Shown in pieces: positions 3,368-38,818 of a stretch of 42,653 nt of DNA. A program made the position numbers and the translations under genes. Source of the stretch: Blastocatellia bacterium (GTDB taxonomy: Bacteria; Acidobacteriota; Blastocatellia; RBC074). The number at the start of each line of letters is the position of its first letter. Position 1 is the stretch's first letter. The notes beneath the pieces were generated by a model. That model ran no database searches. It was not told the origin of the DNA and saw only the letters and a program-made list of their open reading frames with translations. Location: NCBI GenBank assembly GCA_031371805.1, contig JANMKB010000441.1, positions 1-42,653 of the forward strand, written 5' to 3'.

Positions 3368-4405
3368 TCACCACAGCTTCCATTTTTTCGGCTCTGGTTT
3401 GGCTGGAGTTGTTGCGTCTTCCACGACATTTTTTTCTTTCTCAACTGGCCTGGCGCGAAATGGCGTGAAGCGTTTTTGTAATCCATGTTTTTCAATCAGC
3501 GCCCGCACCCTTTGTTTACAGGCCGCGCATTTGACCGGATCAACCATCAATAAATAATTTGCAAACCCATTCAGCGAAGCCAGAACGTCTATGGACGAGT
3601 GCTAGGCTTTTCCTTCTGGCCCATCTTTTTCAATTTGAAACAACACGGCGCGAAAGCGTTTCAGCACTTTGCGATCAATGCTCAATTTTTGGTTGACGAC
3701 AATGCCTGTCACTTCCTGTTGGCGGGCGCGGCGTAACACTCTGGTTTTCGCGGGATGAATTTCCAGGCCTTCGTGCGCGACAATCGCGGCGGTTTTCTGT
3801 AAGACATTGCAAATATTTTTTTTGCTCTCGCCCGAAGTCGAAAACGTCAAATCATCCGCATAGCGCCTGTACACAAAGCCCATCTCGTCAGCCATATTTT
3901 GCAATCGGCAATCCAACCGATGACATAAAATAATTGTAATCGCGGGGCGGGTCGGAGCGCCTTGTGACAAATGCCGCTCACTTATCGCGACAAAATAATT
4001 TTTGCCATCAAGCGTAACTTTTTCGACTTCGGGTTCAGAGCAAAGCAACCCGAAAATTGCGGCGATGATTTGTGCGATCAACGATTTGGCGGCATCGTCC
4101 GGCAACGCAGAAGAGCGCAACAAATTCCGTGCAAATTCGCGTGTGTCCTCGAATGGGCTTGTGACTAATAGCAACAAAAATTGCTTATCGCTAAGGAAAG
4201 GATTGCGGCCTGCGTCAATCCAACGATGTGCCTGTTCATGGGCTTCGTCATTCTGTGCAAAGACGCGTTTGGGTGGCGGTGATGCGCCGCCTTCGGTATG
4301 CACAACGCGATAGCCTTTTTTCGTTTTCTCGTTGCCCAGTGCAGCAAACGCTTTGTCCGCCTCAGTTCGTTTGACAGGCGAGGTAGTCTTTGTCCCTTCT
4401 TTCAA
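3368..4405 (-). pseudogene. retron/defence-type reverse transcriptase-like gene interrupted by in-frame TAG codons (probable pseudogene)
   Basis: The 267-aa ORF 3602-4405 carries LSQGAPTRP (motif B'), RYADDLTFS (YADD at 3851-3862) and QEVTGIVVNQ (VTG motif of retron-like RTs). The motif-A position reads LLLLVTSPFED, with no aspartate. The TAG at 3602-3604 is followed in the same frame by a thumb-like continuation (LNGFANYLLMVDP..., through ORF 3368-3550). A second in-frame TAG lies at 4424-4426, upstream. Confidence 0.6.
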
Positions 4406-4647
4406 ATTCGCGCCATGCCGCCCCTAACGAAAATTAACGACATAAGTGTCTGCGCCAACTTCGCACAAATCTATCTTGTAAACTTTGTCAAAATTACCTT
4501 CACGAAAATGCAGTGAGGTTTGCTGAATCAGTTTCATCACGCAAGAAATAAGGGAGAGGAAACATTGACTTAGCTGGGTCAATTTGCGAGGCGTCATCAC
4601 CCTGCAATCCATTTTTTTCTCAAGCGAAATTTTTGCGAAATTTTCCC

Positions 4648-12439: not shown

Positions 12440-13804
12440 TTACTCATCATCCCGATAAATCTTTAATTTATTATGCAGGGTTTTGAGGCTGATTTTTAGC
12501 ACATCCGCCGCACGGGTTTTGTTATTGCTGGTTTTGAGCAATGTTTTCAGGATCAATTGGCGTTCGGCTTCATCCAGCGGAATCGGGATTGGCAGGGTGA
12601 TTGAATCTTCGTCGTGCAGCGAGCGTCCATCAAAAAGCTGAGGTGGCAAATGCTGTTTTTCGATTTTAACACTATCGCAAACGACGACGGCGTGTTCGAT
12701 AACATTCCGCAATTCGCGGACATTGCCAGGCCAGGGATAGCGCGAAAAAATTTCCAGCACTTCGGGCGAAACCAGACGTGCGGTTCGTCCGTGCCGTTCG
12801 CGCAAGGTATCAACCATATGCTGCACCAGCAAAGGAATATCGTCGCGACGGTCACGCAACGGTGGCAATTCCATGTGGATGACATTTAAGCGATAGAGTA
12901 AATCTTCGCGGAGCATCATATCGCGGACGGCTTTGTGCGGGTCTTTATTGGTGGCCGCCAAAACTCTGGTGTCAATGGACACTTCTTTCGCGCCTCCCAG
13001 GCGGCGCAATTTTCGATCTTCCAACACGCGCAGTAATTTCGTTTGTAAAGTGATCGGCATCTCAGCGATTTCATCCAAAAACAAAGTGCCATTATTGGCG
13101 AGTTCAAAACAACCTTCGCGCCGCGCAATCGCTCCGGTGAATGCGCCTTTCTCGTGTCCGAACAATTCTGATTCCATTAAGGTTTCAGGAATTGCCGAAC
13201 AATTGATGGGGATGTAAGCATTGGCGGCGCGTGAACTAAGCTGGTGAATAGTTTGCGCGACGATGTCCTTACCCGTTCCTGATTCACCGGTGATTAAAAC
13301 GGACACCGAAGAATTCGCCACTTGTTCGATAGTCGTGTAAAGCTGGCGCATGGCGAGCGACGCGCCAACTAATTTACCGAAAACCCCGTGCTCACTAAGC
13401 TGACGACGAAGCTGAGTATTTTCTCTTTGGACGGAGGAGCGTTCAATGGCACGTTGCAGGACGATATGAAGCTGGCGTGTGTTGATGGGTTTTTCAAAAT
13501 AATAAAATGCACCTTCTTCCATCACCGCCCGCATCGCGTCTTCGATACTGGCCTGACCTGTCAGGAGGATTACCGCCGTATCAGGATATAATTCGCGCAA
13601 TTTCGTGAGCAGTCCAAAGCCGTTCAGCCGGGGCATGAAAATATCGCTGATGACCGCGGCCGGTAAGAATTCCGCCGCAATTGTCAGAGCTTCTTCGCCA
13701 TCGGCGGCGACCTGTGTTTCATAACCCCAATCGGAAGCCAATTCACTTAACCCAGCGCGTGCGGCGGGTTCATCATCCACAATTAAAACTCGTGCTTTGC
13801 TCAT
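12440..13804 (-). CDS. sigma54-dependent response regulator (NtrC family: REC - AAA+ - HTH)
   Basis: [13 protein letters not shown] receiver start, Walker A GESGTGK, the GAFTGA loop (EKGAFTGA), and a C-terminal Fis-type HTH ([21 protein letters not shown]). The start is placed at ATG 13804. Confidence 0.9.
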
Positions 13805-14067
13805 AATAAGCAAGTGTAACATGGTGAAAACGGCAGGGGAAAAGAACGGGGAGGAGAAGTTTATTCCGGCTGGAAAAATCATCACCTGGGCTGCCTGCAC
13901 GCAGCTTTTGATTTTGTGTGTACCGTCGGCAGCTACTTAATATTTTGCTTGCTCTGGTGTGTGGATAAAGCTATCGTGGCGCACAGATTTACTGCTGGTA
14001 AGTGGCCTTGCTACAAAAAATCTTCGCAACAACCCACCCTGATAAATAAGGAAAATACCGCTCACTA

Positions 14068-37299: not shown

Positions 37300-38406
37300 T
37301 TACGCTACAGCGAGCAGGTGCTGGACAATTCTCGCACTCGCTTTACCGTCACCATACGGATTTACGGCTTGCGACATTTTTTCGTAGGCAGTTTTGTTCT
37401 CCAACAGAATCATTGTTTCCTGCACGATTTTTTCTTTGTCTGTGCCGACGAGTTTTACTGTGCCTGCCGTGACGCCTTCGGGTCGTTCGGTGACTTCGCG
37501 CAAGACCAGTACGGGTTTGCCAAGCCCCGGCGCTTCTTCCTGAATCCCGCCGGAATCGGTGATGACCAAATATGACTGCTTCAGTAATTGCACGAGAGGT
37601 AAATATTCCAGCGGCTCCAGCAGCGTAATATTCGTAATTTTTCCCAGCAATTCGCGCACAACCGTTTGCACGTGCGGGTTAAGGTGAACGGGATAGACGA
37701 TGTGAACATCAGGGCGACGCTCCGCAATTTCGCGCAGGGCTGCACAAATATTATGCAATGGCGCACCATGATTTTCGCGGCGATGAGCGGTGCCCAGGAT
37801 AATTTTTTTGTCGCGTGGAACGGCGGCGAGCGGCGAGGTTTCCCAGGCGTAAGGTTTTTCGGCAACCTGTAACAACGCATCAATTACGGTATTGCCGGTG
37901 ACAATAATCTGCGTTTCGTTCACACCTTCGCGCAGGAGATTTTGTTGGGAAATTTCTGTGGGCGCAAAATGTAAATCGCTAATACTTGTAGCGATTTTGC
38001 GATTAATTTCTTCAGGAAATGGCTGGTATTTGTCGAAAGAGCGTAAACCCGCTTCGACGTGACCGACTTTAATTTTGTGATAAAAGGCAGCGAGCGCGGC
38101 AACCATTGCGGTAGTTGTGTCGCCCTGCACCAAAACCCAGTCCGGTTTTTCTATTTGCAGGACTTTATCAAGCTTCGTCAACGCGTGCGCGGTAATCGTC
38201 GCCAGCGTTTGATTCGGTTGCATAATGTCTAAATCGTAATCGGGCTGTAGCGCAAAAAGTGCCAAAACCTGATCCAGCATTTTGCGGTGTTGGGCGGTGA
38301 CACAAACTAAGGAAGTGAGTTTTTCCTGATGTTTATTTAATTCTGCAATGACCGGAGCCAGCTTGATCGCTTCGGGACGCGTACCAAAAACAGAGAGAAT
38401 TTTCAT
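37300..38406 (-). CDS. wecB: UDP-N-acetylglucosamine 2-epimerase (non-hydrolysing)
   Basis: MKILSVFGTRPEAIKLAPV..., VQGDTTT, HVEAGLRS, AHRREN, LVITDSGGIQEEAP. Confidence 0.9.
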   Translation of the reverse strand: MKILSVFGTRPEAIKLAPVIAELNKHQEKLTSLVCVTAQHRKMLDQVLALFALQPDYDLDIMQPNQTLATITAHALTKLDKVLQIEKPDWVLVQGDTTTAMVAALAAFYHKIKVGHVEAGLRSFDKYQPFPEEINRKIATSISDLHFAPTEISQQNLLREGVNETQIIVTGNTVIDALLQVAEKPYAWETSPLAAVPRDKKIILGTAHRRENHGAPLHNICAALREIAERRPDVHIVYPVHLNPHVQTVVRELLGKITNITLLEPLEYLPLVQLLKQSYLVITDSGGIQEEAPGLGKPVLVLREVTERPEGVTAGTVKLVGTDKEKIVQETMILLENKTAYEKMSQAVNPYGDGKASARIVQHLLAVA

Positions 38407-38414
38407 AATGACGC

Positions 38415-38443
38415 TTGCAACCTAAAACCGTAAGCTTTACACT
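38415..38443 (+). promoter_or_regulatory. sigma70-like promoter for the tRNA-Leu gene
   Basis: TTGCAA (38415-38420), 17-nt spacer, TACACT (38438-38443). The tRNA 5' end is 13 nt downstream. Confidence 0.4.
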
Positions 38444-38455
38444 TCCAGCCGTTCT

Positions 38456-38762
38456 GCCGGGGTGGCGGAATTGGTAGACGCAACGGACTTATTAATTTGA
38501 GCACCGGGAGCGAAATCTCCCGTGTGAATGGAGTCAAATTCGGTGAACCCTTTTATCTGGCAACACCGAGCTAAGTTTGGAGTAACAGCTCCAAAAAAGT
38601 GTAGAGACTAGACGGCTCCCATCTGACTGCTGCATAAACGGTAAAAGGTGAAGGTATAGTCCAGACCACAAACTGGCAACTGTCAGGCGGCGAAAGTCGA
38701 AGTGGTAAGAAAATCCGTTGGAGCTTGTCTCCGTGCGGGTTCGATTCCCGCCCTCGGCACCA
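38456..38762 (+). tRNA. tRNA-Leu(UAA) interrupted in the anticodon loop by a group I intron (exons 38456-38490 and 38710-38762, CCA encoded)
   Basis: 5' exon: GCCGGGG-TG-GCGGAATTGGTAGACGC-A-ACGGA-CTT. 3' exon: AAAA-TCCGT, variable arm GGAG-CTTGT-CTCC, T arm GCGGG-TTCGATT-CCCGC, acceptor CCTCGGC (one G.U), A, CCA. The spliced anticodon loop is CUUAAAA. Confidence 0.88.
38491..38709 (+). ncRNA. group I intron (tRNA-Leu UAA type, no ORF)
   Basis: It follows exon U34 and ends in G (38709). The internal guide GAG (38499-38501) can pair with exon CUU, giving U.G at the splice site. Stems: CGGGAG/CTCCCG (38505-38522), GACTA/TAGTC (38606-10 / 38657-61, P7-like) and the GAAA-tetraloop hairpin CGGC-GAAA-GTCG (38688-38699). 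The core string GTAGAGACTAGACGG resembles the cyanobacterial intron core (from memory). Confidence 0.8.
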
Positions 38763-38771
38763 AATTCCAAA

Positions 38772-38818
38772 ATCAAAGCCTTGAAAAGTTGCACAACTCT
38801 TCAAGGCTTTGATTTTTT
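38772..38818. terminator. bidirectional rho-independent terminator between the tRNA and the convergent rhodanese gene
   Basis: ATCAAAGCCTTGAA (38772-38785) pairs with TTCAAGGCTTTGAT (38800-38813), a perfect 14 bp. It is followed by T5 on the + strand and preceded by an A-run, which gives a U-run on the - strand. Confidence 0.8.

Follow-up and report, generated by a model that had tools for sequence, protein, structure and literature searches.

A tRNA-Leu(UAA) gene of a Blastocatellia bacterium with a predicted ORF-less IC3-type group I intron in its anticodon loop

Does the 42.6-kb stretch of Blastocatellia DNA analysed here (the window) contain a tRNA gene, and if its two halves are held apart by a group I intron, where does that intron belong? 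The original prediction, made from the letters alone, placed the halves of a class II tRNA-Leu 219 nt apart with the break between U34 and A35 of a UAA anticodon. It took the insert for a group I intron of the kind best known from cyanobacteria and plastids, and regarded its presence in an apparently non-cyanobacterial genome as either ancient retention or horizontal transfer. By default, ARAGORN called zero tRNAs in the window. When introns were allowed, an intron-tolerant search having been proposed together with the prediction, ARAGORN returned one single split tRNA-Leu(taa) at positions 38456–38762 of the plus strand, with a 219-nt intron, and the predicted break was confirmed to the base.

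Once the insert is removed, the joined exons form a perfect 88-nt class II cloverleaf (ARAGORN); it has the anticodon UAA within the loop CUUAAAA, a long variable arm and an encoded CCA. The exons consist of the same letters as the uninterrupted tRNA gene found at the same locus of one close relative, L247 (alignment A1 of the syntenic loci), and that uninterrupted tRNA scores 62.9 bits on the Rfam tRNA model RF00005 (cut-off 29). The junction reads CUU/a...g/AAAA and falls between positions 3 and 4 of the loop (nt 34 and 35), with U at −1 and g at omega, which are the features of the class Leu.3Ug of Williams. At the locus, the scanner called neither a consensus sigma-70 promoter nor a simple terminator. 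By eye, we could recognize one putative promoter and one terminator-like hairpin (Table 1); both putative promoter hexamers sit in conserved blocks across the syntenic loci (A1). The hairpin is possibly a bidirectional terminator, serving the tRNA on the plus strand and the rhodanese gene on the minus strand.

We drew the fold of the insert manually, taking as a guide the curated seed alignment that Williams (2020) provides for bacterial tRNA introns, and evaluated it in alignment A2, which contains the window and 101 relatives; the 99 scan-derived sequences among them are pairwise ≤92% identical. Every pair of the fold is a standard pair in the window. The P3–P8 and P4–P6 domains and the P3/P7 pseudoknot, as required for an IC3 core, are all present. 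The core string GUAGAGACUAGACGG (J6/7-P7-J7/3) is located at 38602–38616; P7 and its flanks, GUAGA... and ...GAAGGUAUAG, agree with the Azoarcus-type seed and with the Rfam consensus. All hallmarks listed in the original prediction, namely the U·G pair with the internal guide, omega-G, P7, the GAAA hairpin (38688–38699) and the core string, could be located in the sequence. The U·G pair of P1 occurs in 102 of 102 family members, and the fourth P1 pair covaries. The last pair of P4 is U-A in the window versus G-C in the family. The P5 region is short, with two clear Watson-Crick pairs only; the L6a loop, which is the site of an HNH gene in sister introns, is 6 nt long. P7 is invariant in A2 because its letters were fixed by the scan pattern; between the family of the window and the cyanobacterial-type introns, it covaries. 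One inner helix, P8a (38626–38629 with 38639–38642), was dropped from the fold, with 31% of its cells paired.

Table 1. Coordinates of the features at the split tRNA-Leu(UAA) locus (positions in the window)
Feature	Start	End	Strand	Basis and remarks
Putative tRNA promoter: TTGCAA, 17 nt, TACACT	38415	38443	+	Recognized by eye, putative; 8/12 consensus positions, under the scanner threshold
tRNA-Leu(UAA) exon 1: tRNA nt 1–34, ends in U34 (U−1 of the intron)	38456	38490	+	ARAGORN with introns; equals the 5′ half of the uninterrupted L247 gene
P1: exon CUU and intron A with internal guide UGAG (38488–38491 / 38498–38501)	38488	38501	+	U38490·G38499 forms the wobble at the 5′ splice site
Group I intron, 219 nt, IC3 type, without ORF	38491	38709	+	RF00028; nhmmer; covariation; blastn break versus L247
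P2 hairpin, GAAA tetraloop L2 at 38512–38515	38502	38526	+	9/9 pairs compensatory (A2); in MFE fold
P3 5′ strand GGAGUC, partner 38614–38619	38530	38535	+	4/6 pairs compensatory; 99.7% of cells paired
P4 UCGGU/ACCGA (38540–38544 with 38565–38569) around P5 (38549–38560)	38540	38569	+	99–100% of cells paired
P6 GCU/AGU and P6a hairpin UUUGGAG/CUCCAAA	38570	38600	+	P6a 7/7 pairs compensatory
P7 5′ strand G[A]GACUA, bulged A; guanosine-binding helix	38604	38610	+	Pairs with 38657–38662
P3 3′ strand GGCUCC; with P7, pseudoknot of the group I core	38614	38619	+	Hand-drawn fold and covariation
P8 CAUCU/AGGUG with lineage-specific internal extension	38620	38650	+	3/5 P8 pairs compensatory
P7 3′ strand UAGUCC	38657	38662	+	Hand-drawn fold and covariation analysis
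P9 ACCAC/GUGGU around P9a and P9b; P9b GAAA tetraloop at 38692–38695	38665	38706	+	P9a 5/5 and P9b 4/4 pairs compensatory; MFE fold
Omega-G, final intron base	38709	38709	+	Invariant in A2; sole boundary giving the loop CUU|AAAA
tRNA-Leu(UAA) exon 2: A35 to A73 and encoded CCA (38760–38762)	38710	38762	+	ARAGORN; identical to L247
Long near-perfect hairpin followed by T-run, terminator-like	38770	38818	+	Recognized by eye, putative; compensatory changes in syntenic loci (A1)

The alignment gives strong statistical support to the fold. In A2, 91.4% of the cells are paired, versus 30–42% when the partners are slid by 1–3 columns; compensatory changes are seen at 40 of the 65 pairs. The covariation is 0.296, compared to ≤0.086 for slid partners, and none of 500 shuffles reached a value as high. 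The MFE fold of the window sequence alone recovers P2, P3, P4, P5, P6a, P8, P9, P9a and P9b (z = −3.9). An nhmmer profile was built from 96 related introns, leaving out the window and its five nearest relatives; it gave one single match, at 38485–38709, which runs from end to end (221 of 221 positions, E = 3.7e-36). In permissive mode, the Rfam model Intron_gpI (RF00028) matches the insert over the full model with 37.1 bits (E = 5.8e-8). This value is under the gathering threshold of 50 bits, and Rfam reports nothing here at gathering thresholds; the sister introns L248 and L219 also score under the cut-off. As a curated score, the cut-off does not describe a feature of the structure. According to Williams 2020 (doi 10.1101/2020.01.27.920355), the Rfam seed contains no bacterial members, and thresholds of 18–20 bits were used in that work. 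As judged from its sequence, the insert is an IC3-type group I intron with no part missing, and its family suggests that it would splice itself.

The host is a soil acidobacterium of the class Blastocatellia. The divergent neighbour of the tRNA gene, wecB (37300–38406, minus strand), encodes UDP-GlcNAc 2-epimerase, and the best named homologues of wecB, with ≤81% identity, are from MAGs labelled Blastocatellia, Blastocatellales, Acidobacteriota or Acidobacteria; a look-up of the exact wecB protein gave no entry. The HIP1 octamer GCGATCGC has 0 copies in the window, versus 649 in 776 kb of cyanobacterial-type loci (∼6 expected). Both observations agree with the non-cyanobacterial genome assumed at the outset; the GAFTGA motif, which had been mentioned in the same context, was found on the minus strand at about 13147.

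The gene order VWA – PilZ – PD40 – rhodanese – tRNA-Leu – wecB is kept in relatives, and the state of the tRNA gene at this site varies among them. The intron is present in L248/L249, whose wecB is 83% identical to that of the window, and in L241 (81%), where the exons are degenerate. The tRNA-Leu gene is uninterrupted in L247 (95%), L242 (82%) and L243 (80%). In the blastn comparison of L247 with the window, two blocks were obtained, 96.1% and 93.2% identical, which meet at 38710 and 38491 with one shared base; L247 therefore lacks exactly the 219-nt intron. The wecB tree joins the window to L247 as its sister (100% bootstrap) and shows the intron-bearing and intron-less loci interleaved, which calls for a minimum of two or three events, be they gains or precise losses. 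Exon polymorphisms track the host, not the intron state (A1); no co-conversion signal was seen in the exons of the syntenic loci.

We consider it very probable that the locus is an active tRNA-Leu(UAA) gene of Blastocatellia, the anticodon loop of which is split by an ORF-less IC3 intron lying between U34 and A35; that it is transcribed, that the intron splices itself and that it has a history of homing, we infer. By analogy with the family, the precursor would be transcribed from a promoter ∼15 nt upstream. The intron would then fold into a P1–P9 ribozyme, whose two domains would be clamped to each other by the P3/P7 pseudoknot and the GAAA tetraloops of L2 and L9b. With U38490 held by the U·G wobble of P1, a free guanosine docked in P7 would attack directly 3′ of this base; subsequently, omega-G (38709) would take the place of the guanosine, and ligation of the exons would restore the CUUAAAA loop. 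The intron belongs to a large family of introns in the tRNA genes of bacteria, whose mobility would be maintained by homing endonucleases, and the site is empty in close relatives of the host.

Could the gene instead be a decaying, non-functional copy, with an intron that does not splice or a gene that is silent, and with UUA and UUG read by another tRNA-Leu(UAA) elsewhere? Such decay is seen in L241, whose intron lies in exons with deletions in the D-arm, anticodon stem and T-arm, and in which ARAGORN sees no tRNA; moreover, the present gene is the sole tRNA within the window, and the rest of the genome could hold an uninterrupted tRNA-Leu(UAA). However, the exons of the window are identical to the gene of L247, a relative with 95% identical wecB, and give a perfect cloverleaf, all ribozyme helices are intact, and the departures from the family consensus in P3, P4 and P6 are compensatory. 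Conservation extends to the hexamers upstream and the hairpin downstream. We therefore regard decay as very unlikely and return to the active gene.

How unusual is such a gene in an acidobacterium? Bacterial tRNA group I introns outside cyanobacteria had been described as rare in the original prediction. We scanned a genome collection using a pattern composed of the core, P7′, P9 and ‘G AAAAYC’, and found at least 120 GTDB species/genome loci with the intron core pattern. The matches listed are mostly from Alphaproteobacteria; 19 are from Acidobacteriota (Pyrinomonadaceae, Bryobacteraceae, Terriglobia, Acidobacteriaceae and others), and the matches listed also include 4 gammaproteobacterial taxa, one Chitinophagaceae (Bacteroidota) and one Planctomycetia (Planctomycetota). 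None of the 120 matches listed has a cyanobacterium in its title. Based on our own junction mapping, at least 108 of the 120 matches listed are tRNA-Leu(UAA) genes split after nt 34. The isotypes given by ARAGORN for the split genome loci (Phe, Ser, Tyr and others) were mostly splice-site miscalls, which junction mapping corrected to tRNA-Leu(UAA). The bare 15-mer of the core has at least 120 matches in viral contigs, and we suspect that some ARAGORN isotype calls on the viral split genes are likewise miscalls. In the literature, 5,292 bacterial tRNA group I introns have been catalogued, with Leu.3Ug as a classical type (Williams 2020, doi 10.1101/2020.01.27.920355); a literature search combining Acidobacteria and tRNA group I introns found nothing relevant. 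Since many non-cyanobacterial copies are known, the premise of a rare placement fails, and the intron of the window is genuine and belongs, as an ordinary member, to a known and widespread family. Using tblastn with five window proteins, no match to the window synteny was found in the 120 scan loci; the scan matches are therefore uninformative on this locus, and the synteny described above was taken from wecB homologues.

The nearest introns to that of the window are acidobacterial. The syntenic L248 and L241 introns have core p-distances of 0.084 and 0.116, and L144 and L190 (Pyrinomonadaceae) and L205 (Acidobacteriota) are at ∼0.14; every remaining intron compared is at ≥0.29. As cyanobacterial comparators, we used the result of a metagenome scan with the core string of the Sel1.Leu.3Ug seed, which we take to be cyanobacterial. 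The scan gave 94 loci, 84 of which have introns at the tRNA-Leu site; these 84 were deemed cyanobacterial because of their HIP1 density. Over ∼200 aligned sites, which are too few to resolve deep branches, the window lies at a mean p-distance of 0.44 (minimum 0.42) from 43 non-redundant cyanobacterial-type tRNA-Leu introns, and at 0.34–0.42 from the seeds that represent introns of tRNA-Ser, Ile, Arg, Thr, Lys and Met. Dropping the scan-pattern columns left this picture unchanged. The window is thus no closer to the cyanobacterial introns than to introns of other tRNAs; at the level of these alignments, nothing ties its intron specifically to the cyanobacterial one, and the alignment to cyanobacterial trnL introns that had been suggested brought out no special closeness. 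The P7 difference given in the original prediction is right: the helix is ACUC/GAGU, ACCC/GAGU or GCCC/GGGU in the 84 introns and ACUA/UAGU in the window. A text search for papers with the cyanobacterial core string found none. A direct phage source for the window copy was also considered and rejected, the tRNA-Leu introns listed from viral contigs being ≤73.5% identical.

Four acidobacterial relatives (L149, L202, L203 and L219) carry intron versions of 678–688 nt, in which the extra 459–460 nt are located exactly in L6a. This insert encodes, antisense to the tRNA, a protein of ∼155–161 amino acids counted from the start codon (the open frames have 163–170 codons), with the motif ELDHINGD...NLRLLCPNCH. 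Compared against PHROGs, the ORF matches phrog_10822 ‘HNH endonuclease’ over the full length (E = 4.8e-45); the Pfam HNH match is borderline, and the PDB search with the HNH ORF gave no meaningful match. Without the insert, the sister introns are 82–86% identical to that of the window. The intron of L159 (Chitinophagaceae) encodes the same HNH family in the sense orientation, and its gene was placed in the P1 loop from the printed sequence. We know of no characterised HNH homing enzyme with a bacterial tRNA-Leu gene as its target.

No intron-encoded homing endonuclease is present in the window copy, which has no ORF and an L6a of 6 nt. Being without endonuclease, the window intron is therefore at most passively mobile; we infer that it represents the ORF-less stage of a homing cycle. 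A broader scheme can be offered tentatively. In an ongoing homing cycle of Blastocatellia, the antisense HNH enzyme of L6a (phrog_10822), with a Shine-Dalgarno sequence that is the complement of the P6a stem, might drive the intron into empty alleles; the ORF might later be lost, as in the window, and the intron might finally be deleted precisely, giving the L247 state. Intron-bearing tRNA-Leu genes in phage tRNA arrays would be a possible vehicle between phyla.

Among the named systems, the Leu.3Ug seed Ncf2.Leu.3Ug shares with the window the host gene, the insertion point CUU/a...g/AAAA, U−1 and omega-G (Williams 2020). The two are similar in size; the Ncf2.Leu.3Ug row has 224 letters including exon CUU, corresponding to ∼221 nt, versus 219 in the window. 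They have the strings GUGUAGAGACUAGACGG, AUAGUCCAGACCACAAAC, GGCGGCGAAAG and GGUAAG in common, with a core distance of 0.33. Different from the Leu.3Ug type, in which P3 is CUGCUC/GGGCAG, P3 of the window is GGAGUC/GGCUCC; the window also has U-A for G-C in P4 and P6, its L2 is closed by a C·U mismatch, and its P8 is extended. It belongs to a distinct Blastocatellia sub-lineage within the Leu.3Ug introns.

The cyanobacterial and plastid tRNA-Leu(UAA) intron of the Anabaena type (Xu et al. 1990 and Kuhsel et al. 1990, as cited in PMC3984707) has the same insertion site, IC3 architecture and GAAA tetraloops as the window, together with the conserved J6/7-P7-J7/3 core. However, its P7 is ACUC/GAGU in 45 of the 84 loci, versus ACUA/UAGU in the window, and the core distance is 0.40–0.44. 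P9 is AUUCUC.../GAGAAU in the cyanobacterial introns and ACCAC/GUGGU in the window, and P4 is CUCAGG and UUCGGU, respectively; the cyanobacterial introns are also longer (228–425 nt), with extensions of P5 and P6. One tRNA-Leu(UAA) intron was reportedly described in 2002 by Vepritskiy and co-workers in a deep-subsurface gamma-proteobacterium, the host phylum of which differs from that of the window.

Like the window intron, the Azoarcus intron is small and has GAAA tetraloops in L2 and L9. In the Aol6.Ile2.5Ug seed, which presumably is the Azoarcus tRNA-Ile(CAU) intron, GUAGAGACUAGACGG is letter-identical to the window, GAAGGNAUAGUCC is nearly identical to its counterpart, and GUCAAAUUCGG(Y)GAA is common to both. 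The J8/7-P7′ string of the window, GAAGGUAUAGUCC, is one base off that of the seed. Owing to the identity of the first of these strings and the one-base difference in the last, the Azoarcus tRNA-Ile(CAU) ribozyme (Tanner & Cech 1996; cryo-EM structure in PMC13168695) is the best mechanistic model for the window intron. The two differ in the tRNA and in the insertion site, which is after nt 36 in Azoarcus; the Azoarcus intron has one single P9 hairpin, compared to P9/P9a/P9b in the window, and a canonical CCUAAG...UAUGG receptor in P5, and its core distance to the window is 0.36–0.375.

For the HNH-bearing sisters, the tRNA-fMet intron of Synechocystis PCC 6803 with its homing endonuclease I-Ssp6803I (Bonocora & Shub 2001, as cited in PMC3984707) offers a model. 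Here too, a group I intron of the anticodon loop is moved by its own endonuclease. I-Ssp6803I is a PD-(D/E)XK enzyme and is encoded in the sense orientation. In contrast, the enzyme of the Blastocatellia sisters is of the HNH type and lies antisense in L6a, and the window copy has no ORF.

These comparisons also bear on the age of the insertion. If the intron had been inherited vertically from a common bacterial ancestor, as the same insertion that is found in cyanobacteria and plastids, the shared U34|A35 site and the shared IC3 architecture would be accounted for; within the small Blastocatellia clade, the divergence of the introns does roughly track the hosts, with core distances of 0.085–0.12 at 81–83% wecB identity. 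Nevertheless, the distance to the cyanobacterial introns (0.44) exceeds that to the introns of other tRNAs (0.34–0.42), with the pattern columns in or out, close relatives differ in whether they carry the intron at one and the same locus, and the homing endonuclease encoded in the sister introns is from a phage-related family. We consider such ancient inheritance very improbable. Of the two origins named in the original prediction, retention is thus disfavoured by the distances, the presence/absence pattern and the HNH-bearing sisters, and the special interest attached to the phylogenetic placement is not upheld. That the halves and the group I-like strings arose by chance or from an assembly artefact is hardly credible, since the silence of default ARAGORN and of Rfam at gathering thresholds is set against the nhmmer match and the covariation, the intron at the same syntenic site in the independent assemblies L248, L249 and L241, and more than 100 homologous split genes.

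The split but probably active tRNA-Leu(UAA) gene carries one practical lesson: standard annotation misses it. According to its authors, tRNAscan-SE was not designed for the detection of group I introns (PMC8450103), and the default detectors were silent here; therefore, such genomes seem to be without tRNA-Leu(UAA) when an intron-aware step is lacking. The known range of tRNA introns is unchanged, because non-cyanobacterial tRNA-Leu introns were already known to be numerous. The locus provides a natural example of three states at one syntenic site: the endonuclease-bearing intron, the ORF-less intron and the empty site.

In the syntenic wecB locus L247, the intron is precisely absent from the tRNA-Leu(UAA) gene that is interrupted in the window, and the exons are identical to those of the window (see table for all features). 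The two loci are closely matched; their wecB genes, which code for UDP-GlcNAc 2-epimerase, are 95% identical and their DNA is 93–96% identical. Another syntenic locus, L241, retains the intron, and its tRNA exons carry deletions at the D-arm, the anticodon stem and the T-arm; ARAGORN found no tRNA at this locus, which represents either a pseudogene in the course of decay or an error in the MAG assembly. In the intron-bearing syntenic locus L248, one IS1595-family DDE transposase gene (3823–4575, plus strand) lies directly downstream of wecB; this gene is missing from the window arrangement.

Several tRNA-Leu(UAA) introns from the genome-collection loci with the intron core pattern carry an HNH endonuclease gene. 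Four of them (L149, L202, L203 and L219), from Pyrinomonadaceae and Acidobacteriota hosts, are 678–688 nt in length, with an extra 459–460 nt in the L6a loop of helix P6a. The insert codes for one HNH endonuclease of ∼155–161 residues on the antisense strand, belonging to the PHROGs family phrog_10822 (E = 4.8e-45). The GGAGG ribosome-binding site of the ORF is complementary to the P6a 3′ strand, and the complement of the P6/P4 core encodes the C-terminus of the endonuclease. The Chitinophagaceae intron (L159) is 761 nt in length and contains an ORF of the same family in sense orientation, located, by our reading of the sequence, within the P1 loop. One endonuclease family seems to have joined the tRNA-Leu(UAA) intron at two different sites.

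Coordinates of the tRNA-Leu(UAA) intron loci and of the flanking hairpin
Feature	Position	Strand	Remark
Hairpin, ∼20 bp, T-rich sequence on both sides	window 38770-38818		between convergent tRNA-Leu and rhodanese genes
Intron-less allele of the window's tRNA gene (window 38456-38762)	L247:1145-1232	-
Intron-bearing syntenic locus, degenerate exons	L241:2448-3000	-	GCA_046331525.1
HNH-bearing intron locus	L149:3416-4189	+
HNH-bearing intron locus	L202:4754-5519	-
HNH-bearing intron locus	L203:1569-2334	+
HNH-bearing intron locus	L219:3974-4739	+
HNH-bearing intron locus	L159:4136-4983	-
Example viral-contig split-tRNA locus	L001:857-1154
Example viral-contig split-tRNA locus	L005:6910-7207
Example viral-contig split-tRNA locus	L006:913-1211

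The core motif was also located inside an intron-split tRNA call in 85 of the 120 viral-contig loci (IMG/VR); 51 were called as Leu(taa), 29 were confirmed by stricter junction mapping, and identity to the window intron was at most 73.5%, all among the matches listed. Many of the split-tRNA loci stand in arrays with 5–14 other tRNAs, resembling phage tRNA clusters. According to one 2014 review (PMC3984707), the phage group I introns known by then were all in protein genes. At two genome-collection loci, among the matches listed, junction mapping also permits C at position -1; the anticodon would then be CAA, corresponding to the unusual Leu.3Cg type of Williams (2020).

The hairpin beyond the tRNA gene is kept in the syntenic loci with compensatory changes. 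It looks like a bidirectional terminator, but one simple terminator scanner made no call for it. The divergent wecB start is only 49 nt from the tRNA gene (38407–38455). With the terminator-like hairpin on the far side, any wecB promoter should therefore lie antisense within or beside the tRNA and intron (38456–38770, minus strand), and gain or loss of the intron would change the wecB upstream region by 219 nt. As originally noted, the sigma-54 activator motif GAFTGA is present elsewhere on the contig, at ∼13147 on the minus strand, in ORF 12440–13900.

At the gathering score, Rfam Intron_gpI gave no match in the window or in the two sister introns tested, those of L248 and the HNH-bearing L219, and default ARAGORN missed the window's tRNA-Leu(UAA) gene. 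Under standard annotation, such genomes would appear to be without tRNA-Leu(UAA).
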